DNA of 61,755 nucleotides, filler included, from Sphacelaria rigidula (lineage: Eukaryota): the NCBI GenBank assembly GCA_964200075.2. It is 9 parts of 9 records of this genome, joined end to end, with 100 filler letters (N's around TTAATTAATTAA, not from the genome) between each part and the next. Parts side by side here need not be neighbours in the genome. Positions count along the whole stretch, not along the records: positions 13,748 to 20,520 come from CAXNAA020018149.1; positions 20,621 to 27,393 come from CAXNAA020018150.1; positions 27,494 to 34,266 come from CAXNAA020018151.1; positions 34,367 to 41,139 come from CAXNAA020018152.1; positions 41,240 to 48,011 come from CAXNAA020018153.1; positions 48,112 to 54,883 come from CAXNAA020018154.1; 3 more parts are not named here. One strand, written 5' to 3'. Shown piece by piece: positions 13,792 to 52,740 of this stretch (the stretch's first letter is position 1; each line of letters begins with the position of its first letter). The translations under genes were made by a program, and so were the position numbers. Below the pieces are notes generated by a model. That model did not search any database and was not told where the DNA came from. It saw only the letters and a list, made by a program, of their open reading frames with translations.

Positions 13792-13824
<33 letters not shown>

Positions 13825-14192
13825 ACTCATGATCTTGGATGCCCTAGTCATACGACCATTGACCTCGTATCCCTACCAAGCTTGGACGGAGCACGCCGGG
13901 TTTTCGCCGGACCAGGCTCGCAGTCGATCGCCAAGGGCGACGCGCCGTGATATCTCCAGCGGGTTGCATGAAGGGTGAACCGTATTCTGTCAAGATTGTT
14001 CGGCCCGAAACGTACTGAATATCGTGCACCTGGATGACAGCCTTCAACGAGTTGCTTCATTTTCTGGTCTCGCCACTTCCAGAGATAGCCATGGATTCCA
14101 CACTGCCTCATGGGTGCCTTACCATATAAACACGACGTGGTATGATCACGCCTTTTTGAGAAGAACTGAGGTTTTCCCGCTCCGCACAACAT
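13792..14192 (-). mobile_element. Non-LTR retroelement family B 3' fragment with poly(C) tail
   Basis: G32 followed by TACTCATGATC...GACCATTGACCTCGTATCCC; homologous to 20461-20520, 49328-49520 and 52273-52740. Confidence 0.75.
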
Positions 14193-14335
14193 GATCTAGC
14201 TTGATCACCGTCATGATTACCGCAAAAAAATGCAAGGGCAAAAACAAAACGGCAACCTGGTTGGCTAGCTTACGCGGTGAGTGGCGTGTTTCACAGCGTC
14301 GTTGCTGACCGACGCCAACCCCGTGGGGAAGAGAG
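14190..14335. repeat. Dispersed repeat (second copy ~50250-50400)
   Basis: ATGATCTAGCT...CTGGTTG(G/C)CTAGCTTACGCGGT(G/T)AGTGGCGTGT...GACGCCAACC is present at both loci. Confidence 0.75.
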
Positions 14336-14420
14336 TGGAGGGGGTGGGTGGGTAGTCATTTGTTGTTCACGTTAGTCATCTTACCATTGACCACGCATCC
14401 CTCGCGAAATGGAACATCGT
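14335..14420 (-). mobile_element. LINE family A 3' end (short, diverged)
   Basis: G-rich tract followed by TAGTCATTTGTTG...ACCATTGACCACGCATCCCT. GTGGAGGGGG occurs on both sides (possible TSD). Confidence 0.7.
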
Positions 14421-16179
14421 TGGCGTGTGTGTGCGCGCGCGTGTGGAGGGGGGGGGAGCAGCCACCGGGCAGTATAATTAGAAGACGCCCCACATAAATA
14501 AATTTAGTACATCTACGCTTGCCACGGTTGCGGCAGCCCAAGCGGCAGCGGCCGAGCATATCGCACGCAATACGCCCGTGCGTCGGTTCCTACTGCAGTG
14601 TACTGCCTGTACGGGGTACCGTTTTGATCTTACTCAGTGTTTCTATTGATCTGTGCCGTCGCTGCGCGGGCGGCTCGAGCTGTACTGTGCTGTCAGACAG
14701 CAGGTTCTAAACAGAGAGCACCGCAGCTACCGTCGTATGTAGCTGCTGCTCCGAAGATTGAGGGTGGCTCGCACGCTGCGCGCGATGCCTCTCAATCCTT
14801 CAGGAAAACAAGCTGCAAGTACTGAAAACGTCAGCTCGCGCGTACGCAAAGCAAGTTTCCAGTGACGTCGAGGAGCGTATACGTTTACATGTGAGGCTTG
14901 CCTTTGTGCTTCCCAGTAAGCAACAAATCTCACAAGCAATGGGAAACTATGTGTGTAATCACCCCCAAAAAGCAAAGGCCTATTTATTTTCGTCTTCCGG
15001 TCACTTTAGACAAGTTCGGAAATAAACAGGACGAAGGGGTGAGACGAAGGCTCCTACCAACGGTAGGCCAGGAGCCACAGCGGCGGCCCCAACCGTCCCC
15101 ACGGAGGCTGTCGAGAATGAGGCAAAACTAGGGCAGCAGCTTCATAGCTCTTTTCTCGACCATTACATGCAATCGAACATCGCGGTCACCACCCATGAAT
15201 CCCCGTGCGTGATCAGCCCAAAAACGAGGAGTTTCGGTATCTCCCCTGTGGTGAAGAGGTGTATGGGCTCCGATAGCAATCTGGTTCAAGGTCGGAATTA
15301 CCAGCACCCACTTTTGGATCATGGCATTTGCATGATATAAGATACATGTCCACAGCATATCACTTGATCTTAGTTCTTCTATGTTTTCTGCGCCTTTCTG
15401 TAACCCGCCCTAGCCTGGACTTACGACTGCGCTCCAACATACACCCCTAAAACCTCTTGTATCCCACTTTGTCTTCCATGCCCTGAACAGTAGATTAGAT
15501 TGTCAAGAAATCCACTTCGTACAGTGTGGAATCTGTTGTCTATTGCCATGGACGCAATAGTCGCCACTGTACGCAGCGCACTTGCCGACAATGTTGGCTG
15601 CTGTTCAGGGCGTGGTGTCTTCACCCGCCAGCTTCATCTGAGCGCCGCAGCTGTACTGCACAGCACGGCACGGTGCACTGCTGCTGCACTGTACTGCTCA
15701 GCTGTGGTGAATGCGATGGCATGACTAGTTCCGTTCCGTAAACCGATGTCGGAGCAGCAACTTGTGCAACCTAGACTGTTCTACCGGCGGATATATTGGG
15801 TTTTCATATGACATTGCAAGATGTGGCATAGGTAAAATAACTTAGATTTTCACGTAAAGGATATCCTCATCCTCCCGACCCCAAACCTACCCCTGGGTCG
15901 TTGCCCTAGCCCCAGGTCTTACCCCTTGGTCCGCTTTTTTTTTTTTCACACTAAAACCAGGACGACGTCAACCAAGATCAGAAAATGTTTTCTCATACAA
16001 AGGACAATTCCACCCGCACTCTATTTGATGCAGCTTTCATCCTGTACTAAGTTTGATATCCTCATGTGCGGTGGGTACAGTAAACTAGGGAATGGTCGGG
16101 GTGTACGCACAGTTTTTTATTTGAAAAAATTGTTCGTCGCACCTTGAACCCTTTTCCTTGAAAAAAAATCCAAAAAGCC

Positions 16180-17745
16180 AGCCAAAAGGGCTATGATGCT
16201 AGACGGGGAAATATCAAAATATTTGGATAGCTTACAAGGAGTTGCACAAGGGTATACGTCATCATCCCCTCTCTTCTAGTATTCATGATATCAGCAATAG
16301 AAACAGGAAAGCAAGGAGTCAATGTGGGTGAAAATATAGTATCAGGATTGATGTTCGCGGATGATTTCGTGGGGACTTCAGAAACCCCAGAAGGATTGCA
16401 GACACAGATAGACAAGGCGCTGGAATACACTCGGAAATGGAGAGCGACAGCGAACGTCAACAAATACGCGGTACTTGTATGTAACGAAGATAAGAAGAAC
16501 CCGGTAGAGTTCAAATGGAAGTGGGGACAAGAGGAACTGCCGATCGTAGACCAGTATACATACCTTGGCGTGGAGATATATGAAAAGAACGTTCTTGGGA
16601 TGACACATAAACAAAGTATTAGAAAAGGGTAAGGCAGCAGGCAGGATGGACGTGATCCTCAGAGACTCGCACCTGGATACTAGGATTAAGAGATGTATTC
16701 TGATGAACTGATTGTACCAAAGCTGGAATATACAGCACAAGTATGGGAGGGGAACGTGGAGTTGGTGAAGAAGTTGGGAATAATGCAGATGGCAGCAGCT
16801 AAAAAAATACTTGGATGCTTGAAAACGACGAGTAATACAGCACTGGGAGCAGAGTTGGGAATGTACTCACTTCAAACTAACAGCGACGTGAACCAATTGC
16901 GATAGCAATATAGCTTGAAGAACATGCAGAGGAAGAGATTGCCAGCTATAATTGATGAAGCTGTATGGGGGAAAATTACGAAAGGGCAGGCTGGAATAAG
17001 GTGGGATAGAGAAGACGAGAAGTATGGAAGGAGACAGGAGGAAACCAAGACGAAACACTGTCCAAAGGCGAGGGCGCGGGGTACAAGACAAAAGTAAGAT
17101 ACATGATGGAAATGAGGAAACCCGCTGAGACGGAAAGTAGACGAGGAACAACACCTGAAGATATACGGGGAGTTGAGAGAGGGGATCCGGATGAAAACAT
17201 TTTTACATGGCCCAGTGGACGGGGGAAATAATTAAAACTGCGATTTCGGGTTGGGGACCTAGGCCTGCCAGAAAGAAGAATTAATGTACCAGTGGTCGAG
17301 AGGAGGAGGAAGTAGATGCACAGAATTGCCCCTGTCAAAGAAAAAGAGAGCATAACTCACATAGTAGCAGAATGTGAACTATACAAGGAGGAATGGTACG
17401 TGCTAGAGGGGGAAATGCGGGACGTCAACGAAGGTGGCATGAAATCGTTTGATGCAGTAAGTAGACAGTAGCGACAAAACAATGGCTATACTAGGAGATA
17501 GATCGTGGCCACAGACGGTGAAACAGGATGGGGATAACATGTGTCAAAGGCCTTTGTTTAATGTACGGAAGAAATATAGTGAGCACCTAAACGTTGGAGG
17601 TCTCTATCAGGAGTAGAAACGGTACTCGATAGTGAGCACCTAAATGTTGGAGGTGTCTCTATCAGGAGTAGAAACGGTACTCCGTCTCGAAAGGGATGCG
17701 TGGTCAATGATCGAACGACTAAGGCAAGCGACAAATGAGTACGCT
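16180..17745 (+). mobile_element. 5'-truncated LINE family A (RT C-half, CCHC-like finger, 3' end)
   Basis: QGVAQG, MFADDF, YTYLGV, CPC..E..HIVAEC, LGDRSW, and terminal KGCVVNDRTTKASDK* followed by GTACG and a C-rich tract. Internal ~54-bp tandem duplication at 17576-17682. Confidence 0.92.
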
Positions 17746-20330: not shown

Positions 20331-20460
20331 TAGTCTAAGACGCACCATTTGCTGTCGCTCTCGAACAGGATAAAGAATCTCCGCATATCACATCTCGTAT
20401 CAGGCCGATATCGGGAGAGAGATGTGTTCATCCCCAGAGACTACAGGCTCGTCCCTACAA

Positions 20461-26490: not shown

Positions 26491-27999
26491 GCGCTCAGTT
26501 ATGAAAAAATGGTTCGCCTCGACTCAACCTCGACTCAGGCCGTGTCTTATCCAAAAAATTTCGACTCGAACGAGTTCGTGCGGCGGAACTGATTCAGTCC
26601 GCTTTGCTATGTTTGAGTCCGAGCGAATTTGCACGCTCTGAATCGAAAAGGCTAAGCGAAATTCGTGAAGCGGTACTTCTTTACTTATACTCAATGTACA
26701 GTACAGTACAGAATGTACAACAACAGTGGCGGCCTGTACTATTGTCTAGATAGTGTGTGTGTATGTTTCGCACAGCATGCAGGCGCTATGTGCAAAAGAA
26801 GCGGGCAATGCCACATACAGACATCACAGCCTATTGACTCTCTGCATACAGGAGGATGCGAAGCAGATCTGAACCACGTGCAGTTTTGCACCGCCTCTAC
26901 TGTCCATGAGCGCGTTGGCAATTCGATCGCTCACCCCAACACGCAACTCCGTCGGTGGACCCTGCCACAAAATTAGATGCCCAAGTCTTCGCCAACAAAA
27001 AAGAAACACATCATGCCAAAATAGTGGTGGTGTCGGTTTCCCATCAGCGTAGTGTATGTATCCCTGTGCTCAGTTCGTGATTTATGCCGCAGGGTTGAAT
27101 AGGTGGCTGCGAATGAACCATTTGGGGTTTGCGTAGTTCTGTGAAACGGTGGTATCTGGCACGGTTGTCTGCAACATAGAAGTTACGTGCCCCTTCGTTC
27201 ATTCCGCCGCTCGTTTCGCTCGAAAAAGCGGCACAATGCCCGTACATGGGGATGGGTTTTTGTAGTGAAATGTGAAATTCAACCAATCAGCGGCCCTTCA
27301 GCGAGGAATCGGTGGAATCTACGAGCTGGGCCAGCCTAGAGGCTGCATGAACGTTTGCAGGCGGATGCGCCGGCCAATATTTGAAGTTAGACCNNNNNNN
27401 NNNNNNNNNNNNNNNNNNNNNNNNNNNNNNNNNNNNNTTAATTAATTAANNNNNNNNNNNNNNNNNNNNNNNNNNNNNNNNNNNNNNNNNNNNACAACCC
27501 CGGATTCAACATCACAGACATGACCCATTGTACGAAACAGACTCCAGAAATAGCAGGGCAGTTGAGCACACGACAACCGCAACGTGGCGTTTCTCCGGCT
27601 TCGCCGCCACGATCTGTGGATCGACAGCCAAGGTACATGAGCACCGGTGATAGCTGTGTGCGTTGTGTAAGCTCATGGACTGAGCACGGTAGCAAATCTG
27701 GATCGTAGACACTTTTGTTGAGTGAAATTGATGCCACTTCAACAGATTGCCTAATTTTCGCCGTCAAATGGCTGATGGAAAACGGCGGGAAAAGATTGTC
27801 GTGTCTTCTGACTGTTTCATGAGCATGATGCCGGTTCGATTTTCAAACAAAACTTTTTGTTTGTTTCGTTTTCAGCCCCAAGAGCAACATGGATGATGAG
27901 CATGTACGAAGGCTCAAAAGAACGCATCACAATCAAAAGTGAACCTGAGGAACTAACCGCCCCCGCAAACCAAGAACCCATATAGTGGCAACGAATTTG

Positions 28000-28215
28000 C
28001 CCATTTGACCGCCATGATAGGTCATCTGTTGTTGACCCTTCGAGCGCGAGGTTATAGTCTTCTGTTGAATGGGCATCAATTTCGAGTGGAAAAAAAGTAT
28101 GCATGATCCAGAAAGACTAATCTCGCGGTCTAAGGGTTAAATCGGCATCAGTTACTTGGACTTCACAAACTACAGCGTGGTCGAGATGACCTACCCTACC
28201 GGTCAAAGGCTTAAC
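28000..28215. mobile_element. Nested pair of ~100-bp TTAA-type MITEs
   Basis: Inner element ~28035-28136 ending CGCGGTCTAAGGG-TTAA splits the GGTCATCTGTTG|AATCGGCATC core of an outer related element. Confidence 0.7.
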
Positions 28216-28504
28216 CCTTTTGTGACGGGATCTCCAGAAGCATGTGATGTGCACGCAGGGGCCTTTGTGTATGAATCGACATAATTTTGAATCGTTTCCA
28301 ACTAAAAATATTGCCGATTCATGGAAACGCCCCTGCGTGCAAACCACATGTGTCTAGGATTCCGGTCCCAAAAGGGTTCAAACAGTACAAATGAAGTGAA
28401 GTCGAGACCATGATGATGCGATATCCATGCTGATACAGTAGGTGTGTGCCTTACGTGTAACACAGAAGGGAGGTAGGTCAACACAGGAAATTCTGTGGCG
28501 GTCA

Positions 28505-29023
28505 CCTTACTTTTTCATCGCGAGAGGGGTTCAGCGGTCCCCTTCGCTCGTCGACCATTAAACCGAATTATGTCTACTCACGACAAACTGAAACTGAATA
28601 TTTTCGTGAGATTGAGAATAGAAGATACCATTGAAAGTGGAGAGCGGTCAATTCGTCAATGAATCGTTTCAGTTCCGGGATGCCCCTCCACGAGGCTCAA
28701 GATGCTCTCTGTACTGTAGGAGCTTGCCACGGAGACCCTTGATACCCCTGAGCAAGATATCGACGTGTAGCTGTATGCACACGTCAGTGCCAGAGGCGAA
28801 GAAAAGCAGGCATGGAATGAAAAACTGGCTTCGTTGAAACGTATAGTCAAAGCCACTCTCAATCAGCGCTCTACTCTCAATGTCTCGAGAACATTGTAGT
28901 CGCCGTCCACTGTTGAACATGGTGTGAGATAAAATTCCAGATCGTGTGACTGCACTGAGGTTCGAACCGACGACCCAACCGCCATAAGGTTTGGGGGTTA
29001 CCAACTGAGCCACCAGAGCGACC
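28505..29023 (-). mobile_element. SINE family 2 with tRNA head, interrupted by a MITE
   Basis: A box TGGCTCAGTTGG (29012-29001) and B box GGTTCGAACC (28968-28959). The body continues past the MITE to 28505 and is collinear with 32650-32810. Confidence 0.78.
28596..28896. mobile_element. ~300-bp MITE with TIR CAATGTTTTCGTGAGATTGAGAGTAGAG (copies/ends at 30850-31110, 31550-31712, 41240-41300, 49972-50060)
   Basis: TTTTCGTGAGATTGAGAATAGA at left and CTCTACTCTCAATGTCTCGAGAACATTG-TA at right. The internal sequence matches 30850-31110 in reverse. Confidence 0.8.
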
Positions 29024-29259
29024 GTCTACCGACTAAAACATGAGAAATAGAAGCCGGCACCTCATGACGAAAAAACACATGTATGGCAGAGCAAAAGAAG
29101 CAGCATAGACAGGAGAAGGGAACGACATGCGGGCAAGATCACAACATGCTTCCGGTGTGCGCTGAGGTTGAACGGAGAGTCGCTCCGCGATACAATTTTC
29201 AAGTGACCTGTATACGGTAAGAGGTGGCATCTCTGACGGTCAAAGGGTCACAAAGAGAC

Positions 29260-29640
29260 CCCGTTTCACCGTATTCTAAAAGCAAGTGAAAAAATTCACC
29301 TGTCTCAGAGCCTCTGGTTACTTACCGCCATGGCGAGGAAAGAAGGCGGAAAACACCATGCAGAGCACTGCCGTGGGAGCGATGCTCCCGAAACCTCCTG
29401 AAGGAGAACCATGAAATGCTGCTTTGTCGGAGCTTGAGAAAACGAAATGAACCCGTTCGCTGTTCTCTAAAATCAAGTAAGAGCAAATTCTCGCCTCTCT
29501 GAGCTTCTGAGAACGACCGAATGACACCGTATCGCCGTACTCTGAAATCAAGTGTGAGCAAATGCTGGCCTCTCAGACCTTGTGGGAAAGCCGTTCAGCC
29601 GTACTCTAAAACCAAGTGAAGAAGTGCACCTGCATCCAAG
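29260..29640. repeat. Degenerate direct subrepeats (~65-75 bp)
   Basis: CCGTA(C/T)TCT(A/G)AAA..AAGTG.. recurs at ~29270, 29460, 29535 and 29600. Confidence 0.6.
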
Positions 29641-31676
29641 GCTCTTCAACGGCGAAAAAGATAAATGAAGTGATTGCTACAAGGTTTTAGGCGCTTCGCG
29701 CCCCCGCTCAATGACGCGTTACCCAAGGCAAAGGATGATGTGGAGTGTTGCAACCGACATCAGCCGTCGCCCACATACAGGAGTGCTTAGAGGCGAAGAT
29801 AAGATCCAGAGATAACTCGTTCTCTTCTTTTTGCCTCTTTGGACTTTCAAACATCGTCGACGACGATTAAACCTGACCAAAAAGAGCCGGAAGAAGGCAG
29901 AAGACACTGGTCCTGCACATCTAAAAAAGAACCGTGAAGCTCCACCTATTCTCTGTCCGAGAAATCCAGGCGAAATGAAAGTATTCAACCTTCAAAAAAC
30001 GACAATCCCTGAACGAGAATCAAGAATCGGAACAAGGCAGAAGACACTGATCGTACAGAACTAAAGAATAATCGTCATTCTCCACCCATCCTCCGCGTCT
30101 CAGATATCTGCCCAAATGAACTCATTTCAACCTTCGAACATATACAAAACTCGACCGAAAGTAAAGAATCTTAGCGACGCAGGAGACACTGATCCTGCAG
30201 AAGCAAGAACTATGAAGGAATATGACAGCATCGACAGTATGTTGAGACAACGTGTTAGATCATCTTTTATGGCGACGGATCTCGATTTTTTGACCGGGCC
30301 GCAAATTCGTGAACTCACAATCGGGGGGGGGGACCGTTCTATGGTACAGACGGTATCATAAATTTGTGACAAAGTTCTGTACACAGACGGCCATTTTCTG
30401 CACGAGTGTGGTACTGCGTACTTGTGCATGAAGCCGAAGAGCAGGCAGGGGGGGAATAATCCTTCGAGAACAGTGCCGTACCTTGGTTCCCTAGGGTAAT
30501 ACAGTGCACAATCATGCCGTGTGGTATAGTGCACAACTATGCCGTGTGGTATAGTGCATGATGGCGGCACAGTCGGTATCGCGGGAAAAGTAAACAATCA
30601 GATATGTGCGCGAGAAGAGTTCAGCAGTGCAGTGCCATACACCACCCCTCAAGTACAGCGACAACAGACGAGGAAAATACAGTACCTTTTGTTATAATAG
30701 TAATACATGTGGGAGCGCAGCGCAGCATCAGATATTACCATCGCCGCAGGGTACGGCGTCAGCACTCATTATTCGTTTGTCAAACCCCGTGCAAAGCTGC
30801 TTCAGCAGCTGGTGCGGGCAGGCACGCCCTGCGCTGCCACGAGAAACACCGGTTTCGTGAGATTGAGAGTAGAGCGCTGACTGAGAGTGACTTTGATTAT
30901 TCGCTGTATCTTACTTGCTATTTCATTCCGAGTATGCTTCTCTTTGCCTCTTTCATTGGCGTGTGCTTACAGATACACGTCGATATCCTACTCAGGGATA
31001 TCAAAGGTCTCCGTGGCAAGCGAACACAGTAGATAGATTGGACCTCATAGAGGAGCATTTCGGAACTGAAACAATTCATTCACTGATTGCCCGCTTTTCA
31101 CTCTCAGGCCGGATGTTATGCCAAACAGAATTTTGGCCCACGGATTGTTCACTTTTGGTACATTTGAGTCACTTTTTGACCCCCAAACAGGGAAAATCGC
31201 CAACACACGTCTTGGACACTTTGCATCACCCCACAGAGAGGAGCCCAGTCTACTTTTCAGATTCCCTTGGCTCCGAGGTTTCGAGTTGGCCGCTCAACAA
31301 AAATTCGTGCGCAATACTCTATGCTTGCCGACCCCCGCCAGTTTGAAAAAAAATGAAAGATTGGTGACTGCCATAAAAAAATGTTGATTGATTATCTCAC
31401 ATTAGATTAGCTGATTGCAACAATCTAGCCCGTGGTCAGGAGCAGCAAAAAAAGAACAGAGTGATGAAAGAAAAAAGAAGGGAAGAAACAGAAAAAGACA
31501 AAAGCAACGACCTCAGAAAGGAAAAAAGAAAGGAAGCAGCGATGGTCTAAAACCCTTGGTATCCCTCAGTAGGATATCGACGTCTAACTGTAAGCACACG
31601 CCAGTGATGTAGGCAAAGAAAAGTAAACGTGGAATGAATAATTGGCAAACTTGAAGCGAATAATAGAACCCACTCT

Positions 31677-32232
31677 CAATCAACGCCCTACTCTCAATCT
31701 CACGAAACCATTCATTGCTGCTACCTGCCGCTCACACACGATTGTGAGGTAAAAGGTCCCAAGAGGATTAACCCTTAGACCGCGAGGAGGGTAGTCCATC
31801 TGGATCACGCTTACTTTTTCAAGTGGAATTGATGCCGGTTTGAACAGGTGACCTATACTCTTACTTTGGACCGCAATCAAAGCCCTACTCTCAATCTCAC
31901 GAAACCATTGCTACCTGCCGCTAACACGCGATTGCGAGGTAGACGGTCCCACAAGGGTAAAGAGGAGGGTAGTCCATCTGGATCACGCATACGTTTTCAA
32001 GTGGAATTGATACCGATTCAACAGGTGACCTACTCTTGCCTTGGACCGCAATCAACGCCCTACTCTCAATCTCACGAAAACATTTGTTACCTGCCGCTAA
32101 CAAACGATTGTTGTGAGGTAAACGGTCCCAAGAGGGTCAACCCTTAGACCGCGAGGAGGATAGTCCATCTGGATCACGCATACGTTTTCAAGTGGAATTG
32201 ATGCCGATTCAAATTGTGACCTACTCTTGCCC
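31677..32232. repeat. Tandem triplication of a composite unit (MITE end + spacer + TTAA MITE)
   Basis: CAATCAA(C/A)GCCCTACTCTCAATCTCACGAAA..GCTACCTGCCGCT...GGTAGTCCATCTGGATCACGC repeats at ~31677, 31874 and 32049. Confidence 0.85.
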
Positions 32233-32234
32233 TT

Positions 32235-33435: not shown

Positions 33436-33469
33436 ACAAATCGCGGTCTTCCGGGAAATCCCTCTAGCG

Positions 33470-34366: not shown

Positions 34367-37300
34367 CGCTGTATGACCAGTTTTTTCGTGACCCTTTCAG
34401 CTGGTTTTTGGGGGGGGCTATCGTAAAAAGTATCACGGACTCTAACTGAACGCCTCGCTGCGTTCGACCAGATGCACGACTTCATTCGACGTGATGAACA
34501 TCGTTTGCGTCAATGCACCACGGCCACGGAGACTGCCACCACGGCTCTACGCTTTCTAGATTAGGAGCAATACCTTCCTCTTCTGAGGACCACGCCGAGC
34601 GAGCCAGCGCCTGCACCTTGTGCCGTCATTTCTGACTCGGCGGAAGCACGCCAGCCCTCGCGCCCACACACTGCTGCTGCGGCACCTACCGCCTCGCCTG
34701 CGCGCACCCCGCCATCGCCACCGCAGGACCTTCAGGCCTCGGCGTCCCCTGCCCTCACACCTTGGCTCCGCCTTCAGGGTAGCGAACGTTCTTGGCTTTC
34801 TTGGACGCTACGCCAACTGTCAGGAAAGTACAACCGCAACAACGTTCTCCGCGCCTCCGAGGAGGCTTGGCGCTCGCTTACTCTGCCGATCAACAGCGTG
34901 ATCGTCCTTTTCCTTCAGCAAGGGGGACATCTGCCGCACAACGACCCGGGAGCTCTCAACATTGAACGAATTGTACTCTACCTTACGATTGTTACCGGGG
35001 ACAGTCGCCCCGCTTATGAGATCGCCGTCGCCGCCCTCTTCGCTGCTATGCGTGCAGCTCATAACACGCTGTCGCCCGACGATGATGGGGCCTGGACCAC
35101 ACCCTACCCCCCTCGTCACCGTCGTGATGATGACGACTCTGACGACGACCCTCCCGGGGCCGCACCACGCCGTGGTCAAGGGACCCACCGCAACAACAAC
35201 AACGGTCGACGCACAACCCGGGGCAGCCACAAACGGTCTGGTAATCAGTCTTCAAGTTCATCAACTGCCAGGCCCCGCCAACACGCCTCAACGCGATCCG
35301 TACGGCCCTCACCGGCCGTCAGGCAAGTAACGCCCCCTTTGGCGGCTGCGTCTGCTCGCCTCCCAGGTCTTATTGATAGTGATAGTGACAATTCGGCTCG
35401 CCCATTGTCTTCTACCCCGGCTCGGTCACTAGCTGCCGCCGCCGCCGCAGCCACACAACAAGCTGCCGCTGATAAAGCCGCTTCCGATACTCGTAAAGAA
35501 GCGTCTCGTGTCGCTGCAATCAAGCGTGAAAACTTACAGATGAATGTCAAGAAACTTTGGCATATCAAAATCATGCCTGCTGCAGACATTGAGGACTATG
35601 GTCAGTTTATATCCGCTCTCATTTCCTCAATGCGTCGAACTATGCGCGACATCCTTGAGTTGGCCGACGCAACTGGACAACAACGTTTCGAAGACTCCGA
35701 CTGGATTGATGAATGGCAAACCCCGTTACACAAGGCTTTGCATCGCTCAATCAGCCGTCGCTTCCCTGACGTCGCTGCTTCTTTGACGCAGATTCTCGAC
35801 TCCTTCTTCGACGCAATGGATCAAGATTGTGCTGGCGGGCAAACAGCGCCGCTACGATTCGGCAATTTGGAAAGGCGCATCGTAAGTTATTTTGATACGT
35901 CTGATCAGACTGGCGCCATCAAGCGCCTCAGTTCCTTCGCCGAGGCAATAGACGTGCCCTTTGCTGACTGCCTACGCGAATTCAAGCTAGTGGTGTCTAG
36001 TGTAACTGGTACTGGCCGACAGAATGGCCCTAGTGATGCTATGTGTCAGACATATGTTCGCAATAGTATCGCTCAGCAATTTCCGACGCTGATGCCGTCT
36101 CTGTTTCCGGGCGCTTTGGCGCACAAAGAGGTGTCTTACGCCTCCGTAGATGCGATGTGGACTGCGTTTGTAGATCAAGAACATAATTTAACGCCTGCCA
36201 TTCGTGGCACACAGTGTTCTTCTGGGTCTTCGCAGACCTTGCGTGCCGCATCCACGAGTATCTCCGGGTCTCGTGGACGCACTCACACTTTGTCCAGTAA
36301 TACTTGGACACCCAATTCTGTCGGTGGATCGGTCATGTCTGTTCATAACAAAGAAGACCCCTTCCGAGCAAGCTTCGACGCTTGGCCTTATTCGGCAGAC
36401 ACTTTTGATGACGTTTATGTCGTTTCCACAACTGCTTTCATCACCGATGATCCGCATTTGTGGACCCCCTTGCTTTCGCCTTCGGCTCGCAAGGATGCTT
36501 TTCGACGCCTTGCTAACACATGCATCAACTGCAATGGTACTGACCACAGTATGCGTGACTGCCCTGAACCTTGCATCAATACTTTTTCGCTCATGAACCC
36601 TGGACTTCAGAGCAACGGGCCGGCGTGGCGCCGATGGCAAAAACGCGTGCGCGAGTATCGTACACCGTCTCGCCACCATCGCCAGCCTTACCACAATCAT
36701 AACGACTTTCGCTCAAATCGCGACCGCCGCCACACCACCAACACCGTCTCAGGTACTCGCCATAGAGTTAGTTCTTTCCACCCTTCTCAGTCTTTGCATG
36801 GTCATCACCAGCGAACGGGGCCGACTGACGACAACTCAAACCCCAATGCCAGAACCCCCGGCTCTTTCATGACGGATCGCAACGACCCATGACACGCCGA
36901 CGACGGCGTGAAGTCTTCGGCGCCGTCGATAGCAGAATCGAAGACTCATCCAACACACACCGCCGCTTGGGTGAGAAAACGTTGTCACCCAAATGTTTCC
37001 ACATTATGTAGGAGATCTAATGACGGTCGTTCTTCTTGACCCCCGTCTTTATCTTCATACACACAGCGTAACCGTTGTGTTGACTCACCACCCAGCTCTA
37101 TGCTTGGCTCCAGACTTGGTCCCCTGGAACTAAGTAAAAATCTGAGGTGTGGGAAGACTGACCGCGGACCCTTGAGGCACACGCTTCCCTCAACGACCAC
37201 ACGCACCGGTTGTAGCAGACTTCCTTCGACTGGTTCTGGTGTTGATGGTTCGAAACTGACCACTTCAACCCCTTCGACTCCCACCCAGCCTGATCGCAGT

Positions 37301-40300
37301 CGATCTTTGCGTCACCCTTCTGCCGCGAAACTACCCCGACATACAGCGGACAACACTCGTCCCCTTTCACATTTAGCAGTGCACTTTGTACCGAGCTTGC
37401 CAGCGGACAGTCCACAAGTTTCGGCCAAGCATGCCCCGATGCTGACAACATTACCTCAACTAGACGCAGTTGCAGTTTCCCAAGAAGTTTCGGAAGTTCC
37501 CAGCCATTTTTCACGGCACAAGAAGAAGCCTCGTCGTCATGCCCCCAAGGTCGCGCGAGCATTGACACGCCCCCCTCCCGTCAACGGAAAACTCCGACCT
37601 CATTCTCCCCAAAACGCGGCGACTTTGAGCTCGATGACATTGCCAGGCATCCAAGAGGAACGCAAATCGGACCTTTCAGACGGTACCGCTTCCTCCACTG
37701 ATGACCCACGTGGCACTTCGCAGCAATCTATCTTCAATGATAACCCTTGTACTTCCAAGCCCGTCATCTACGAGATTGATCAAAATCCTCATTCACGCTG
37801 CCCTTCACGATCGGATCATGCCCCCGCGCTGTCTACCGATACCTTCGAACCCCCCGCGGACCACCCGCCATCCGTCTTCACGGTCAGTCCGACTAATCCT
37901 GACCAACTCACGTTATCTGAACATGGCCCTGACCTCGTAGGTGGTAAGGTGTCCATTGACCCTGCCACCTTCACTACCCGCGTAGCATTACACTGCGGCC
38001 CTTACGCCACCACGCGCGCCAAGTATGTCTCGTTGTTAGACAGCGGTAGTCCACAGACATTCATCAAAGAATCCATGTGGAATCACATGAAGCTTCCGAT
38101 GTTTGCGAAATCACTAACCAACCTCGCGTTTGGGGCGGTTTCGGCGACTCCAAAACATCCTTGACGACACGAAAATCTGTTCGTCTTAGTGTGCAGTTTT
38201 TCCACAATGATACACGTTCGGCTAGTCTCGCAGTCTGGGCTTACATCGTCCCTGACAGCACCATGCATCATGCTCTCCTTCTTGCCAGAGATAGCTACAT
38301 GCGGTTCGACCAACGTACGTACCGCACCCTCCCATCACTATCGCCTCAGTCGGCGCCTCGTGGAGAACTCCAACTAGAACATTTATATACCCTCAGTGGT
38401 GCCTTAGCCTACAAAGAGAATGAGTAGGCTACCGGCGCGGCTTACCACCTTCGGTACACTGACAGTTCTGGTGTCACTCGTTCCGACGAGCCTCAACTCT
38501 TGGAAGTTTTGCTTGTTCGCCGCAACGGTATGCCTGCCCTCACCGGCCACCACCTTGCGGAGTTGCTGCCTAAAATTGGTGCGCCCGCTAGCACTGAGCA
38601 TTTTGTCCCGGACGGCGAATAACTCCTGCCTCTCACAGGCCATGCTAATTTGGAACCTGGCGATGTCTTGGGCATCGCCGCGGCTTCTCTCATGCACATT
38701 CCTCTAGATACCTGTGTGGCCGACCCTCCGGCGCCTGATCCCACACCGCCGACTAATGGTTCTGTTCACTGCATTGATGAGCCATACTTTGATCTATCCT
38801 CATCACTCCCGACCCGGATTTCTGCGGTGGAATCCGACCGACCACCTGCTGAAACTCCTGATGAGGTGCTTCAACGCCATCGGTTGAGTCTCGGGAACAC
38901 TTCCTGCAAATGTAGCACCAACTTCCGCCTTATTCGCGTGATATCGATCTCAATCTACATGGTCCGGGCTGGGAGCCCGCTGTCATCCAAGAGTTACACG
39001 ATGTTCTCCTGGATTACCAAGACAGATTTTCCCGATCCACGACGGATCTGGGGAATTGTAAAACATTGCCACTCGAGATAACCTTGCAACCTGGCGTTTC
39101 GCCCATCTAATCTCGACCATATCGAACGAATCCCTTCCTCACCAGAAAAGTCAACGCTATTTTGGATGCATACTTAGTAGCTGGTCTGATTCAACACTCG
39201 TCTTCGCCATGGGCCTCACCCCTCGTGGTCGTCCCCAATATAGATGGCAACATACGCATCACCGTGAAATACAAACGACTGAACCGTGTCACTGTCGTGG
39301 GAAAACTCCCCATACCTCGCATCGACGAAGTCGTCGACTCTCTCGGCGACGGAAAAATATTCAGCACTTTCGATCTCGCATCTGAATTTTCCTAAAATGC
39401 AATTCACCCCTATACAGTTCCATTGACAGCGTTCTGTACATCTTCAGGGCTTTATGAATGGCTTCGTATGCCACAAGGCGCTGCCACAGCACCTGGCTGC
39501 TTTCAACGCCTCATGCAACGCGTTACTGACGGTCTCGAGCATGTTATCATGTATCTGGACGATGCTATCGCTTTTGAAGCCTCCCCCAAGGCGCATGTTC
39601 GCACTCTACGAGAATTTCTCTCCCGCTTGCGTACACACGACTTGAAATTGTCTCCATCCAAAGCTCGATTCGGAGCGACTGCATTGGATTTTTGGAGACA
39701 CTCTATCTCTCCTGCTGGATTGCACCCAGACACGAACAAAGTCAAGGCTATGACTGATATGCCCATGCCCACCAATATTTCGCTGCTTCGCTCGCTATTG
39801 GGCGGACTTTCTTACTATCGTAAATGTTTGCCCAATTTGTCGAAGCGGATCCGGCCCATCACCGATTTAGTGAAGAAAAACGTCCCGTTTGTCTTCACTA
39901 AAGAAATGGAAGCTACCGTCCGCGAATTGCTCAAACCACTGACCGAAAAACCGATTCCTTTTTTACCGGATTGGGATGCAGTACAAGACGGCTCACGTCT
40001 TTTCCAACTGCACACCGATGCTAGCATAGATGGGCTCGGCGCCGTTTTGAATCAGCCTCAACTAGATGGCTCTGCCCGACCTGTTTTGTATATTAGCCGC
40101 ACAACCCTCCCAAATGAGGCAAACTGGAGTCCACTCGAACTAGAAGGCGGAGTCATAACTTGGGCTATTAACAGGCTTCGACAGTACTTGTTCCACGTGC
40201 CTTTCCACATCTATACAGATCACGGAGCTCTTGAACAACTCGCTAAGGTTGGAGAACATAACGCCCGCGTACAACGGTGGCTGGAGTTCTTTACTGCTTA

Positions 40301-41065
40301 CCAGTACGCTGTTAAACACCGTCCGGGCAAAACCAACGGCAATGCTGATCTTCTGTCGCGATTGCCCCTGCCCCCTATAGCGGTAGATTTCAGTCCCGCT
40401 TGCCGCTTGACTAAACCTGAGAACCAGGCGTCTACCCCATTCGGCGTTTTTCTACGCCCATCTACGCGCTTGACTTGCAATGCCCCGAAACAGGTCTGCA
40501 CATGGGGGGCCCCCGCCCTCTGCCCCCTGATGCAGTTTTGGATTGGCTTAGCGCCCACAGCTGCTGACTTTGCCGACTTTCGCACTTTCGGCCCTCGCGC
40601 GAACATCTCGGCGCCGCCACCACCAACTGTTCACTTCATCTCCGACAACACGCGTTTCCGGTCAGCAGAGCGTGCAAATTCTTCGTGTGCCGCGATACCA
40701 CCGCCGCCGTCGGCCGCTTCTAGCAATGCGTCGCCGCCACCGCCGCATGCCCCCACGAGCAGTACAACACCTGCCACAACCGGCCGCGCGACCACTGTTG
40801 TACCGACAAAGTCCGCGCCCCATGCGCGCCCAACGCGCCGATCACGTTCGCCGGTTCGCGCTACCTCCACGCAGCCTTCTGGGAATCTCCCTGCACCTAC
40901 GCCTCTGACTCGCGATCCGCATGGGTCAGATCCGCTTCCGGACCAAACTGTTGACGTCGGCACCCCTGCTTCCTCACCTGTGCCACCCCCTCCTGAGCCA
41001 CCATGTTTGGTCGGCTCTCCGGCTGAAGGACAACTTCGGGAATTTCTCGGAGCCACCCTACGATA
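34367..41065 (+). mobile_element. Ty3/gypsy LTR retrotransposon internal region (gag, PR, RT, RNase H; integrase and LTRs not on contig)
   Basis: Protease LLDSGSPQTFI (~38035), SPWASPLVVVP, FSTFDL, MPQG, YLDD (~39552), LHTDAS, ELE, YTDH, NADLLSR. pol has several frameshifts and stops. Confidence 0.95.
34898..36892 (+). CDS. Gag-like protein with CCHC zinc knuckle (664-codon open frame)
   Basis: Uninterrupted ORF upstream of the protease with CINCNGTDHSMRDC (CX2CX4HX4C). True start uncertain. Confidence 0.85.
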   Translation: MIVLFLQQGGHLPHNDPGALNIERIVLYLTIVTGDSRPAYEIAVAALFAAMRAAHNTLSPDDDGAWTTPYPPRHRRDDDDSDDDPPGAAPRRGQGTHRNNNNGRRTTRGSHKRSGNQSSSSSTARPRQHASTRSVRPSPAVRQVTPPLAAASARLPGLIDSDSDNSARPLSSTPARSLAAAAAAATQQAAADKAASDTRKEASRVAAIKRENLQMNVKKLWHIKIMPAADIEDYGQFISALISSMRRTMRDILELADATGQQRFEDSDWIDEWQTPLHKALHRSISRRFPDVAASLTQILDSFFDAMDQDCAGGQTAPLRFGNLERRIVSYFDTSDQTGAIKRLSSFAEAIDVPFADCLREFKLVVSSVTGTGRQNGPSDAMCQTYVRNSIAQQFPTLMPSLFPGALAHKEVSYASVDAMWTAFVDQEHNLTPAIRGTQCSSGSSQTLRAASTSISGSRGRTHTLSSNTWTPNSVGGSVMSVHNKEDPFRASFDAWPYSADTFDDVYVVSTTAFITDDPHLWTPLLSPSARKDAFRRLANTCINCNGTDHSMRDCPEPCINTFSLMNPGLQSNGPAWRRWQKRVREYRTPSRHHRQPYHNHNDFRSNRDRRHTTNTVSGTRHRVSSFHPSQSLHGHHQRTGPTDDNSNPNARTPGSFMTDRNDP

Positions 41066-41139
41066 GGGGGGGGGGGGGCGTACTCATTTGTTGCTTGCCT
41101 TAGTCGTTTGACCATTGACCACGCATCCCTTTCGAGACG
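41066..41139 (-). mobile_element. LINE family A 3' end with C13 tail inserted in gypsy pol
   Basis: G13-CGTACTCATTTGTTGCTTGCCTTAGTCGTTTGACCATTGACCACGCATCCCTTTCGAGACG directly after the pol frame ...LGATLR. Confidence 0.9.
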
Positions 41140-43959: not shown

Positions 43960-45092
43960 AGTTTTCATCCCGATCCTTTCTTTTAACCCCTCGTGTGTCT
44001 TCAGGTGATCTTCCTCGTCTACTTTGCGTCTGAGTGCTCCTTCTCCCCTCATTTCCATAATGTATTTTACTTTTGCCTTGTTCCCCATGTCTTCACCTAT
44101 GTATGGACAGTATTTCGTTTCGGTTTCCTCTTTTCTCCTTCCATAGTTTTTCTACTTCTTTATCCCACCTGGTTCCAGCATTCCCTTTTGTACGTTTCTT
44201 CCATACAGCCCAATCAACTAAAGCTGGCAATCTCTTTATCTGCATTTTCTTTACGCTATATTATCACCTCAGTTTCCTCATGTCTCTTTGATTCAACTGA
44301 GTGCATTCCCAACTCTGCTGTCAATGCTGCATTACTAGTCGTTTTCGAGCATCCAAGTACCTTCTTAGCTGCTGTCATCTATACTGTTTCCAACTTCTTC
44401 GCCAACTTCACGTTCCCCTCCCATACTTCTCCTGCACATTCCAGCTTTGGTATAATCGCGTTCATCAGGATATATATCCTAATCCTAGTGTATAGATACG
44501 AGTCTCTGATGACAACGCCCATCCTTCCTATCTGCCCTAACATTTTCTATTACATTTTTTATGTGCGCATCCCAAAAACAGTTTTTCGAGATGTCGACAC
44601 TCAGGTATGCATACTGGTCTACGATCGCCAGCTCCTCTTCTCCCCACTTCCTCTTGAGCCCTACCGGGTTTTTCTTGTCTTAGTTACAGACGATTACCGT
44701 GCATTTGTTAACGTCCGCCGTCACTCTCTATTTCCTGGTGTATTCCGGAGCATTTTCTATCTGTTGTTGCAATCCTGCTGCTATTCCTGAAATCCCCACA
44801 AAATCATCTGCGAACATCACTCCTGATATCACATCTTCACCCACCTTGACTCCTTGGTTTGCTGGTGCTACAGCTAATATCAGGTCATTGAAGAATATCT
44901 CGAATAAAGTGGGTAAGAATATACATCCTTGTGCAACTCCTTGTAAAATATCAAATATTTCGATATTTCCCCGGCTAGCATCACGGTACTTTTGGCACAT
45001 TTTGACATCTTCTTCGCTTTTCTTCACATATTTCCTCTGGTCCAAGTTTCCCACAACTTTTCCAACAGCCCCTTTCTCCATGCTGTGTCAAT
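43960..45092 (-). mobile_element. Internal fragment of a family A-like LINE (RT)
   Basis: DTAWRKG, QGVAQG, FNDL, MFADDF; collinear with 16190-17200. Confidence 0.9.
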
Positions 45093-46913: not shown

Positions 46914-47307
46914 AGCTTTTCGGTTCGTTATCAGTCCATCGTTTTGAGAAGAGACTCAGTGTTCTTTGTTCTGTGTTGTCCAAATAAAGCGCTTCAGTAA
47001 ACCATCGACTATCGTACAACGATAGTAACTTGACAGTTACTGTGCACCATCTTCGGAGTTTATACTGTCACCGATACTCTGGCGTCTAGTTCCTCTTGTC
47101 ACTTGATATAGATTGAGCGAGCTCCTGCCTGTAAAACAGGTGGGCAGTTTTCTACATATCTCATGCAGAGAGAGTCATATTATTTTCTATGACAACCCTT
47201 TCCCACCGGCAAACGCCTTGCATTTAGGTCTCGCGTATTGGATCAGTACTGTAATGCGTGAGCAGACCGCGTGCTTTTGGATCTTATCGAAGTTTGAACA
47301 CCCCTAT

Positions 47308-47384
47308 GGTTGGGCTTGGGCTTAGGGTTAGGGTCAGGGTTAGGGTCAGGGTTAGGGTTAGGGTTTTAGGGTTAAGGTCAGGGG
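47308..47384 (+). repeat. Interstitial telomere-like (TTAGGG/TCAGGG)n tract
   Basis: About 12 units of TTAGGG/TCAGGG/TTGGG(C). Shorter tracts at 55633-55657, ~53172 and ~53965, and reverse at ~15880-15925. Confidence 0.85.
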
Positions 47385-48570: not shown

Positions 48571-48971
48571 ACTCATGAGACATGTGTGTTGATGAAATAT
48601 ACCTCGCCTCAAACTCAAAGACAGAGCCTTTCACGTTTTCTTGCAAAAATGTCAATCATTGTGTGGTCCCTGCATGCTGTCCGAAAGTGGTTTTGCTTCA
48701 TTTCAAATATGCTGTATTTCATGACCATCACTCCCAGTTTTACTCTCAACCAGTACGTGTCGTGAGACATATTTCATATTTCATCACACATCGCATAGGT
48801 GCACTTTTTCTCGGGGTGGGGGTGGTTGTTCCGAACTTCAAAAGCAAAGTCAAATATCTCGTCCCTCCTTTTCTTTTCTCTCATTCCTCGCCTTTTCATG
48901 CCCGAGCATCCTAGAAATCCTATTCGCTTTTCCCTCGGGCGCGTACTCTTCATGCGAAGGGCGAGGGAGGA

Positions 48972-49078
48972 GGGGGGGGGGGGGGGGGGGGGGGTCCTTT
49001 TTNNNNNNNAGCGTACTCATTTGTTGCTTGCCTTAGTCATTTGACCATTGACCACGCATCCCTTTCGAGACGGAGCAA
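48972..49078 (-). mobile_element. LINE family A 3' end with poly(C), inside a G-rich tract of a host repeat
   Basis: G23, a few bases plus a short N run, then GCGTACTCATTTGTTGCTTGCC...GAGACGGAGC. Flanks match the uninterrupted repeat at 50664-50900. Confidence 0.85.
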
Positions 49079-49327: not shown

Positions 49328-49520
49328 GGGGGGGGGGGGGAAGGTGTACCGATGATCTCGCATGCCAGTGCCATATGACCTTTGACCGCACCAGGCTCGC
49401 ACTCAAACCACCAAGCGCGAAGCGCCGCGGTGTGCTCGGCGAGTCGCATGAAGGATAACCTGCATCCTGCCAAGATTGTTTGGCCGTAGCGTATGGGTAC
49501 TTGAAGGAACATAATACCCT
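49328..49520 (-). mobile_element. Family B 3' fragment with poly(C) tail (internally deleted)
   Basis: G13 followed by AAGGTGTACCGATGATC...CCAAGCGCGAAGCGCCG.GGTGTGCTCGGCGAGTCGCATGAAGG, as at 52480-52525. Confidence 0.75.
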
Positions 49521-50985
49521 TCGTGACGCAGAAAACGACTGGTGGATTACAACATTCAATTCATCGCGACAAATTTCATTATCTGGCAATTAGATGTTCG
49601 AACATGGTACACCAGAGTGATGCTATGGTAGGTGTACAAAAATAAATTCTGAGGTCAGAATTGTTAGGAGCCCTTCATCTCATCCAAAACACGACTTACG
49701 AAAATATGCGAGCGTACGCCAGGATTACTATTTCAATGTACCGGAGATGTCCCGAATAAATCTGCAAACGGGGATGCCCTGGCCCATATTCTTATGCGTC
49801 TGAAATCGTTAGGAGCCCCTGAACCAGACAAAAATGTACGAAAAAAGTGCACCCCTACCGTAGCATTGGTCACCACTACACTGTCTGCAACTGCGTGTGT
49901 ACTGTCCACGAGAGCGCAGTGGCCGAGGTTCGCTCGGTGTCCTTGGATGTAGATGCGTGGATATACGGAACAATATTTTCGTGAGGTTGAGAGTAGAGGT
50001 CAGTCAGTGAATTGAGAGTAAAAAGCGGTCAATCAGTGAATGAAAAATTTCAGCTCCTTTGCGCAGAGTCACGGTTCTTCCAGCCCGCACAAGACTACAA
50101 TCAGGTAGCATATAGGTCATCACACTAATAATGGATTGATCCTATTCAAATGAACAATATGTATTCATAAATTTCTTGCGACCGTATGCTTGTGGCGAGT
50201 GGTTGATGTTTGGGGTTGGAATTTGGATGTATGGGAAAATGGACTTCGATATGATCTAGCTCGACCATGGTCGTGGTTACTGCAACAACGAAAAAAAGCA
50301 AGCGCGCGAAAAAATCGGAAATCTGGTTGCCTAGCTTACGCGGTTAGTGGCGTGTCGTACATCGCATCATCACCAACAGACGCCAACCAGGTAAAGGGGG
50401 TCTGCCCCCTAAAAAGCCGGTACAAAACACGCCGGGTGTTCGTCGGAACAGGCAGAGGGAAGGGTTGCGCTTACGTACTCAGTACCCAATAGCAATCAGT
50501 TGCTAGTAGTAAAGCTTCCTACACAAGACTAACTGACTGTCTCGGTTGATCGTTGGACACCGAGAAGCCACATACACAGTCGGGGCAACAGAGAACACAT
50601 CTTGTCTGGGGTATTACACGCCTTTTCACGCCAGAATAATAAAAATTTCGACCACTTTTTCATCGGACGCGTACACCTCGAGCAGCGGAGGAGGGAAGGG
50701 GAGGGGAGGGGAGGGTGGGGGGAACCGACACCGGATTTGGACAAATTCTAGAGCACGCCCAGGCGCTTCTTGTTCTTATAGCAGCAAAAACAAAAAAAGT
50801 TTTGACGATGACCAGACCTGTTGGTTCCAAAATACGTTGCGGCAAACGCTTCGTCTCATCATCGCCCTGATGAGATGTTTTTTCGCCGTGAAAGCAAATT
50901 CCACAAAATAATGTGACTTTTGTTTCATCCCCCAGTAAACCATCCCACCACCCCTCACGCAACAAATAAGTGCGCCCTTACCCCC

Positions 50986-51057
50986 ATGCTCCTTCTCGAA
51001 AAGGATGCGTGGTTAATGATCACACGACGAAGGCAAACAACAAATCAGTACGCCCCA
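50986..51057 (+). mobile_element. LINE family A 3' end (short)
   Basis: CTCGAAAAGGATGCGTGGTTAATGATC...AACAAATCAGTACGCCCC with a C-rich 5' flank. Confidence 0.75.
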
Positions 51058-51134
51058 CATACACACACGAGAACACGGCAACACACACCAGTGCAGCCGC
51101 GAGCGATCGAACATACGTTCTTCTGGGCCCATAC

Positions 51135-52235
51135 GATGCCACCACCAAGGAAAAAGGCACGCAACAAGGCGGGGCTTTCCGACATTCGTGAAAAATACCA
51201 TGTGAGGGTTATTTTGGCCCAAAGCATTGCGATTCCTTCCCTCTCCCCCCGATATCCTCGGCTACCGACCTCGCTCGACACCGCAACCACTACTGTTGCT
51301 TCACAATTACAGTGGTTCTTCTTCAATAGTCATGAAGCAAAAACAGACATGACAAACCGTCTGACACGGCGCAAAGCACGACCGTACCACGAAAAAGCAA
51401 CACGGCACCGAGCCTTGCTGCTCAACACGGCGGCTACAACTTTTGACGTTCAGGGAGGCATGGAAAGTGACGAAAGCACCAGCACTACTCTACAAGCTTT
51501 CGTCGCCAAGCTGTTGCTGACCAAGCCATATCACACACAGCAGGCTTCATAATTCCGAGAAGCACCGGGTGACGCACGAAATGTCCCTGCGCCGTAGTAT
51601 TCAACACCCGCAGTAGCTCAACTCTGTGTTGACAACAAACGTGCCCCTTACGAGTGTGCGTGAACAAACCTCGTGTGCATCGAGCTGCATGCGCAAATCG
51701 GGGAGCTGTCTCCGACATACTTCTAGCCGTGACAAGCAGTAATCCGAGCGGAGAACAGGGCACTCACGGCTGCGGCTTGAAACGAAAGCGTTGTCGCCGA
51801 CAAGCCCTCGTCAAGGGGTCTTTTATGCTTCGTGGTGAAACGGATACCTGCACCCCATAGGACAAGGAAAAAAACCACACCTCGCTATCCTGCCTGGTCT
51901 ACAACTCATGGAAACTGTACATCGCTCCGGTGAGGCATGTGTGGAGTAAACACTCACCCGTCAGCTGGTTGTTGCCCAAAAACAGCTCCTCCACCGTCAC
52001 AAGCTGGCTCAACTCGGGAGGTATTTCGCCTGCGTGTCACACATCGGAGCAACCAATGGAATTGGCCATTATTTTTACGCGAAAACAAATCAACCATCAA
52101 GTACAGACTCCGTGCCTGGTGCATGCCGTGACTGGATGGCAACACAGGTACGTGTCTGCCCCTGTACGTGGAATCAACGTTGTATCAGGGGCAAGTCACT
52201 TCGGTCTTCGCTAGAAACATTTGCCGATAGCGTGT
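51135..52235 (+). pseudogene. Degenerate pogo/Tigger-like (Tc1/mariner superfamily) transposase
   Basis: MPPPRKK start, LLAVTSSNPSGE, DKEKNHTSLSCLVYNS and ISPACHTSEQPMELAIIFTRK echo the NAxG, LLxDN and PP..TS..QPMD.GII...K blocks. Frameshifted. Confidence 0.5.
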
Positions 52236-52272
52236 AGAAGAACGAATAAATCTTCGGGGGGCTTGGGCCCGA

Positions 52273-52740
52273 GGGGGGCGTACTCATGATCATGCATGCC
52301 ATAGTCATATGACCATCAACCTCGCATCCTCTAGGGCAAAAGCTCTTTAAAGCAGGGCGGCGCGTGCACTGCGCCAAGTTGATACGGGGTTGTAGTGAAA
52401 TTATCCCCCACCCTGCCGCGAGGCGGTCGAGCCGAGCCTTCGGGTGATCGTCTCCCCTGGACCAGGCTCGCGTTCGATCACCAAGCGCGAAGCGCCGTGG
52501 TGTGCTCGGCGAGTCGCATGAAGGGTGAGCTTCATCCCGCTGAGACTGCTCGACCCTCAGCCTGTTGATGATCTTGCATTTGGATAACATACAATGAGTT
52601 GCTACATTTTCTGGTGTCGCCCCTGATAGAAACAGCCACGGCTTATGCACTGCCTCACGGGTGTCTCACCATGTTGACACTACGTAGTACGATCATCCCC
52701 GTTGTGCAGAGTTGAGGTTCTCCCACGCCGCACAACACTA
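52273..52740 (-). mobile_element. Family B 3' fragment with C6 tail
   Basis: G6-CGTACTCATGATCATGCATGCCATAGTCATATGACCATC. Collinear with 13824-14192, with G-rich sequence also at the 5' junction. Confidence 0.78.

Follow-up and report, generated by a model that had tools for sequence, protein, structure and literature searches.

A LINE with C-tailed 3′ ends and its short non-coding partner in Sphacelaria rigidula

Elements ending in a run of cytosines are already listed for the brown alga Ectocarpus, in supplementary material of Dinatale et al. 2025 (PMC12477816). Its table notes describe RTEX-1_Ec32 as "single EN-RT ORF; (C)n 3'" (EN, endonuclease; RT, reverse transcriptase; ORF, open reading frame) and RTEX-2_Ec32 as "(C)n termini/TSD", both 5.5-5.9 kb in size, and give "C-rich" target-site duplications (TSDs) for the Ectocarpus RTEX families, non-autonomous partners included. 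RTEX-N1_Ec32, of ~600 bp (604-607), is noted as resembling RTEX-1/2 ("60 bp 3' end 83%") and as an element that "can be present in tandem"; RTEX-N2_Ec32 has 188 bp, and both are non-autonomous and SINE-like. RTE-X elements are entered there as the most abundant repeats of Ectocarpus, with 16,418 copies and 3.4% of the genome. RTEX-1 is also named in Saccharina, in a passage that does not give its tail (PMC4421812). Here we analyse a stretch of 61,755 nt from Sphacelaria rigidula (assembly GCA_964200075.2), hereafter the window, made of nine segments of ~6,773 nt joined by artificial spacers. It holds two repeat families, A and B, which together have the same anatomy as these listed Ectocarpus elements: a long interspersed nuclear element (LINE) with a C tail and a short partner. 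The initial annotation of this DNA knew of no description of such a tail; the supplement provides one.

More distant LINEs offer precedents as well. Non-A tails, stringent 3′-end recognition and slippage on non-A repeats are reported for UnaL2 and the I factor in a passage of PMC3747384, and LINEs are presented as sources of mononucleotide microsatellites in a part of PMC3812793.

The ten 3′ ends first annotated in the window are all present, at 6637, 14335, 17745, 41066, 48972 and 51057 for family A and at 13792, 20461, 49328 and 52273 for family B. Their last 45-65 nt align, with the consensus ...(A/T)GAGTAC(G) or a variant with 1-2 base changes. They lie on four of the nine segments (1, 3, 6 and 8), and not on six unlinked contigs as had been stated. 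The copies and pieces of the two families are as follows.

Family A
83..3374, minus strand: 5′ part with the APE endonuclease and the start of RT; cut by the segment end
3374-2717, minus strand: 5′ untranslated region (UTR) of the 83..3374 copy; C7 at the 5′ junction, 3387-3393
6637..6774, minus strand: 3′ end (last base 6663/6662) whose C-rich tail is interrupted; a spacer cuts the copy
14322..14421, minus strand: 70-nt unit; its C-rich tail abuts the head of a family B copy
16159..17744, plus strand: 5′-truncated, decayed LINE with the 3′ part of RT, a CCHC knuckle and a C/T-rich tract
17736-17738, plus strand: TGA stop of the 16159..17744 copy, then a 5-nt 3′ UTR and the C/T-rich tract
41066..41139, minus strand: 3′ end with C13; 73 of 74 nt the same as in L005, a locus outside the window
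43962..45090, minus strand: internal fragment, RT and downstream, without the 3′ end and without a C-run at its junctions
48972..49077, minus strand: 65-nt unit (49077-49013) with a C-rich 5′ flank, a 7-N gap and C23
50987..51057, plus strand: 65-nt unit with the same 5′ start as the 48972 copy, a C-rich 5′ flank and a C4 tail

Family B
13792..14320, minus strand: non-coding element of ~500 nt, ending in C32
20461..20520, minus strand: 3′ end with C17; cut by a spacer
49328..49485, minus strand: 5′-truncated copy with a CCTT-C13 tail
50050..50453, minus strand: degraded pieces, including the head seen in the 13792 copy
52273..52737, minus strand: copy of 458 nt with a C6 tail
52747-52753 and 52764-52770: C7 runs at the 5′ junction of the 52273..52737 copy

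We call a flank C-rich when at least 8 of the 15 nt next to the element boundary are C, as in 2.9% of all window 15-mers. By this measure nine of the ten ends run into C-rich DNA (binomial P ~1e-13), against 3 of the 35 other GAGTAC sites in the window. The longest C-runs at these nine ends are C32, C17, C13, C13, C6, C5, C5, C4 and C3; the short pure runs are C5 at 6637, C5 at 14335 and C4 at 51057, and the C/T-rich tract at 17745 contains the C3. The earlier description, C4-C32 or a C-rich tract after each end, needs correction at 17745, which has no run above C3, and at 48972. There GCT, a 7-N assembly gap and A5GGA stand between the end and C23, and contiguity of C23 with the element end is not established. 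None of the ends has poly(A), in agreement with the initial annotation: the longest A-run in the 60 nt after the ten window ends is A5, and no A-run above 5 occurs at 15 ends when five outside loci are added. A window scan with a profile built from these same ends returned no further end, the next-best match (E 0.6, at 6545) being without a C-run. The C-tailed ends are a real feature. GAGTAC followed by C7 also occurs alone at 3544-3555 (minus strand), upstream of the segment-1 element at a distance of 170 nt from its 5′ junction, with no detectable 3′ module.

The outside loci, L001-L005, came from a tail-free pattern: 32 nt of the conserved end, stopping ~17 nt before the tail. It matched three metagenome contigs and two contigs in prokaryote genome bins, and gave no match in viral contigs. 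All five loci continue to ...TAC(G) and then to C8-C13. Contigs of four public sequencing runs from two organisms (X1, X3, X8 and X12) were aligned to 40400-41139, with 82,060, 28,025, 2,270 and 8,810 matches, which fall almost wholly on the 74-nt family A end; among the matches listed for the four runs, the consensus at loose ends at 41066-41070 is a G-run (plus strand) in 16 of 16 cases. The C tail holds in the outside loci and in the contigs of four public runs. L004 and L005 lie in bacterial metagenome bins and carry algal LINE sequence, so the two prokaryote-bin matches are probably algal contamination; protein P0003 presents a comparable case. In two tails the last bases of the element (…GAGTAC) recur shortly inside the tail, at L004:2620-2660 and at 48940-48950 of the window (both minus strand), as expected from template slippage or restart.

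Could the runs be poly-G of two-colour sequencing, or an assembly error? Homopolymer lengths are unreliable in short-read assemblies, and the run at 48972 adjoins an assembly gap. Against this, the sense strand carries C in every case, irrespective of the assembled strand (8 minus and 2 plus in the window, 3 minus and 2 plus among the loci), the run is anchored at one base after a stop codon, and it is bridged by unique DNA. It is present in five unrelated assemblies and four runs, and appears in the curated Ectocarpus entries of PMC12477816. Because of its constant strand and anchoring, a sequencing artefact is refuted as the cause and scarcely credible as an explanation, while the lengths of the runs could still change.

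Family A had been annotated as the end of a LINE with RT and a zinc finger, and we confirm this from the RT and CCHC ORF at 16159-17742. The window holds pieces of the element, with the whole ORF present in L003 and L005 as full-length tblastn matches. Intact relatives of the window RT piece have 1,328-1,360 aa and combine an APE endonuclease and RT in a single ORF; in P0007, the 1,360-aa relative used as our protein reference, Pfam Exo_endo_phos and RVT_1 fall in one protein. The CCHC knuckle, C-x-C...H-x4-C, is invariant in the family A relatives. L005 spans 5,153 nt up to the element end, its true 5′ end being undefined, and the P0009 cluster includes contigs of up to 5,664 nt.

The ORF ends in ...GCVVNGQMTKASNK. 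Its stop codon, TGA, forms part of the conserved end, and the C-run is reached 5 nt further on. The endonuclease, RT and knuckle are thus encoded by one frame that reaches to 5 nt before the end of the element, so that a recognised 3′ module would also be coding sequence. Since the conserved end is a LINE ORF stop, we reject a Helitron or long terminal repeat (LTR) end. Ectocarpus has two protein families of relatives, CAB1110456.1 and CAB1109165.1, with 75% and 52% identity to P0007, the former with the same C-terminus as family A; both form one clade with it (FastTree support 1.0, 31 RT domains). A set of 114 longer distant relatives, among them 61 with a C-terminal CCHC, contained no case of the C-terminal motif APS..G.VVNG, and no family A relative was found in viral contigs by pattern or protein scans. 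Within the last codons of the window ORF there is a 55-nt tandem duplication, at 17582-17680.

Family B, previously described as a second LINE, is instead a non-coding partner of ~500 nt. Compared with 27 proteins, its body shows no resemblance to RT, the sole match being 44 aa to the N-terminus of P0024, and only its last ~50-70 nt are common with family A, which rules out a second LINE. Nor are the two families independent at the 3′ end, where the final 50-52 nt of A and B have 77-81% identity: compared with full elements, family B is 77-81% identical over the last 49-52 nt only, and two of its copies retain the upstream TGCTCCGTC...GGGAT hairpin region too. The longest copy extends from ~14320 to 13823, and its head is shared with a degraded copy at 50388. 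In a search for a Pol III-type head, 13748-14500 had no Rfam match at E<=1, and ARAGORN at a lowered threshold made only an implausible wrap-around tRNA call. Family B is a non-autonomous partner, which would use the family A machinery through the common 3′ module of ~65-70 nt, and the ten ends therefore form one system. A common module in turn points to a machinery that recognises a particular 3′ end stringently.

This module also occurs alone. Both ends are visible in four family A copies: two of these measure exactly 65 nt from a common start base, and a third has 70 nt. In public contigs, joints lead from 41139 back to ~41066 with the next 2-5 bases of the element in between (at least 239 of 82,060 contigs in X1, at least 83 of 28,025 in X3 and at least 33 of 8,810 in X12); these are head-to-tail units of ~70 nt. 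Copies are nested as well, the tail of the 14335 copy abutting the head of a family B element. Downstream of the tail of L005, positions 51-65 of that locus match the family B head exactly over 15 nt, possibly a second case of A on B like the 14335 copy followed by B at 14320.

In consensus-like copies, pairing is possible between the five bases at either end of the unit, and this helix would close two hairpins. The three predicted 5-bp helices are fully paired in A48972, L001, L003 and L005 and keep 14 of 15 pairs in B13792 and L004B, in a scoring that left out B52273 and B49328. Tentatively, and with more doubt than confidence, we propose that these 65 nt (TGCTC to GTAC, with the predicted closing helix) and a few C's would be the minimal substrate: a mobile mini-element primed by C:G pairing at G tracts, targeting its own tails, building tandem arrays and contributing much of the long C/G homopolymers found in brown-algal genomes. 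If so, it would be a poly(A)-independent, G-tract-directed system of target-primed reverse transcription (TPRT), with one of the shortest cis signals known, placed within the last codons of an ORF. We did not find a recurrent 65-nt unit, alone or in tandem, in print, though the consensus sequences and Figure 1C of PMC12477816 may already show short units.

The 5′ side of the copies bears on the origin of the tail. With 5′ junctions placed from blastn alignment ends, six of ten in the window are C-rich (P ~1e-7 on the 2.9% background); setting the start of the 13792 copy to 14320 adds a seventh, whose flank is the tail of the 14335 copy. From these C-runs, much of the C "tail" is probably target DNA. 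In its strongest form, this idea holds that the copied RNA ends at ...GTACG without C's, that the endonuclease prefers G tracts, and that the tail is merely the duplicated and slipped target. The kind of tail does vary from copy to copy (pure C, CT-rich, CA-rich), as targets would, and the Ectocarpus entry for RTEX-2 couples (C)n termini with the TSD (table note in PMC12477816). Yet pure runs of at least 10 nt are found at four of ten window 3′ ends and three of five outside loci, and at none of 12 5′ junctions within 25 nt, where the longest is 8. Runs of this length being confined to the 3′ side, length is added there; moreover, RNA from any genomic copy reads into its own C-run. We consider an exclusively target-derived tail unlikely.

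Conversely, the C-run might be carried by the element or added by RT, with insertion not directed to C/G tracts. Such a tail would fit the 5′ junctions at 16159, 45090 and 49485 and both in L004, which are not C-rich, and the gypsy site at 41049, where other copies have no G-run. This site had been read as a C13 lying directly on gypsy pol, and hence as a run that arrived or expanded with the element, an argument that fails because 16 nt separate the run from gypsy sequence:

41050..41065, no strand assigned: 16 nt of non-gypsy filler between C13 and gypsy pol

In other gypsy copies the match to the window stops at 41049 (11 contigs in X3, agreement 0.8; one contig in X8), so that this empty-site comparison ends 16 nt short of the run. 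Against a tail independent of its target stand the C-rich 5′ junctions, six in ten and far beyond chance, and the copies found inside one another's tails; we regard it as improbable.

The filler resembles the DNA after C10 in L003 (L003:84-98, 13 of 15 bases) and has no second copy in the window; it could be a carried 3′ flank of the source, a common target repeat, or chance. The gypsy element itself (34565-41049, plus strand) has a long gag-like ORF, a weak zinc knuckle, RT and RNase H, and breaks off at 41049, ahead of the integrase. P0012, a 1,927-aa gene model of Ectocarpus sp. CCAP 1310/34, combines gypsy RT/RNase H domains with the 3′ 450 aa of the family A LINE, and probably represents a LINE inserted in a gypsy copy.

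We favour, as the likely reading, a C-tail/G-tract LINE: family A as a brown-algal APE-type LINE of the Ectocarpus "RTE-X" group, working together with partner B. To the observed anatomy, tail, C-rich 5′ flanks and nesting we add a course of events that we likewise think likely. The protein would bind the 3′ module, in its own RNA or in that of family B, with stringent recognition. Its endonuclease would nick the G-rich strand of a C/G tract, and the freed 3′ G's would pair with the C's downstream of the module in the RNA, whether borne by the element or read through from the donor flank. Reverse transcription would begin there, and no poly(A) would be copied as a consequence. The product, C-rich on both sides in many copies, would represent a blurred C-rich target duplication, lengthened through slippage during or after insertion. 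Every new tail would then be a new target, a pattern visible in the stacking of copies in one another's tails, including the tandem 65-70-nt units.

Several points weigh against this reading. No transcript end, nick site or clean empty site was seen. Four of the ten 5′ junctions in the window and both in L004 are not C-rich, and no long perfect target duplication was found in the seven copies tested, the best flank-to-flank words being C-rich 7-10-mers in three of these. The fold of the 65-nt module is not clearly beyond shuffles (50 of 500 fold as well; z from -1.7 to +0.3) and the predicted helices are broken in older copies, so its structure stays hypothetical. The loose ends listed favour contigs that match the reference G13; the at least 1,606 contigs in X1 and at least 565 in X12 with loose ends at 41066 thus document how abundant these ends are rather than what share of them has a run. 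Finally, the RTE-X label derives from blastp notes in the supplement of Dinatale et al. (PMC12477816) and not from labelled reference RTs.

The suggestion that such LINEs are a source of the poly-G tracts of this genome receives modest support: in the window, 5 of 10 C/G runs of at least 10 nt and 10 of 24 runs of at least 7 nt lie at element junctions.

The window contains other repeats. A family of short repeats with AGGGTTA-like words, ~180-200 nt in length and both dispersed and in tandem, occupies 27688-33450 and 53900-55820, telomere-like (TTAGGG)n occurs at 47300-47375 and 55615-55680, and a ~300-nt tandem repeat is present in four copies at 10652-11840. A 131-nt inverted repeat at 54984-55518, 96% complementary with arms 273 nt apart, is a possible miniature inverted-repeat transposable element.

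A C-tailed LINE, C-rich targets and a short partner are known for Ectocarpus from the table notes of PMC12477816. Apart from these, the literature yielded neither a further description of poly(C) LINE tails nor a mechanistic study of one, in a search that left Repbase, Dfam and most subscription journals outside its scope; the poly-C of PMC9942856 belongs to the inverted repeat of a DNA transposon and that of PMC5381506 to internal tracts of the L1 3′ UTR, both unrelated.

Family A shares with the listed RTEX-1 and RTEX-2 a single EN-RT ORF and a (C)n 3′ end, and may share the C-rich target duplication and the size class. It differs in that its window copies are decayed, and either RTEX could be its orthologue. 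In the RTEX-1/2 passages and table rows of PMC12477816 there is nothing about a stop codon so close to the end (5 nt), about 65-nt units or about how priming occurs. Like the RTEX-N1 and RTEX-N2 of these notes, family B is non-coding, with a head of undefined origin and a 3′ end near that of the autonomous element (77-81% over 49-52 nt, compared with ~83% over ~60 bp). Its longest copy has ~500 nt, unlike RTEX-N1 with ~600 bp, and the likeness is drawn from anatomy, not from body sequence. The 65-70-nt units are shorter than both partners as listed. Other repeat-tailed Ectocarpus LINEs in the supplement are RTE-1/2, with (CAA)n, and CRE-1, with (CA)n; family A belongs to neither, given its (C)n tails and N-terminal endonuclease (the order in CRE is RT-EN).

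As in eel UnaL2 (TGTAA) and the Drosophila I factor (TAA), treated in the same passage of PMC3747384, a specific 3′ end is common with a short partner and a simple-repeat tail other than poly(A) is linked to slippage. The present system departs from both in its repeat, a C homopolymer, and in having coding sequence as its recognised end. With mammalian L1/Alu, as covered by the sources cited, the system shares an APE endonuclease, RT and CCHC, a homopolymer tail that could pair with a complementary tract, and a possible role as microsatellite source. L1 recognises poly(A) without a common 3′ sequence, according to PMC3747384, whereas here the 15 ends lack A-runs above 5 and have a common module, so this is not a relaxed poly(A) system of the L1 type; family A also has one ORF, and its RT is only distantly similar to that of L1 (E ~1e-20). 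We infer that the C tail is genome-encoded and does not come from poly(A) polymerase. The proposed C-tail/G-tract counterpart of L1 is hence the best reading as regards tail and tract, and does not extend to recognition, stringent here for a shared 3′ end. To the Ectocarpus entries we add the persistence of the trait across brown-algal samples, the start of the tail 5 nt past the stop, and a recurrent 65-nt unit, also in tandem arrays. This raises the questions of whether TPRT can be primed through C:G pairing at G tracts, and whether C-tailed LINEs give rise to G/C homopolymers in the way that L1 and Alu do to A/T ones.

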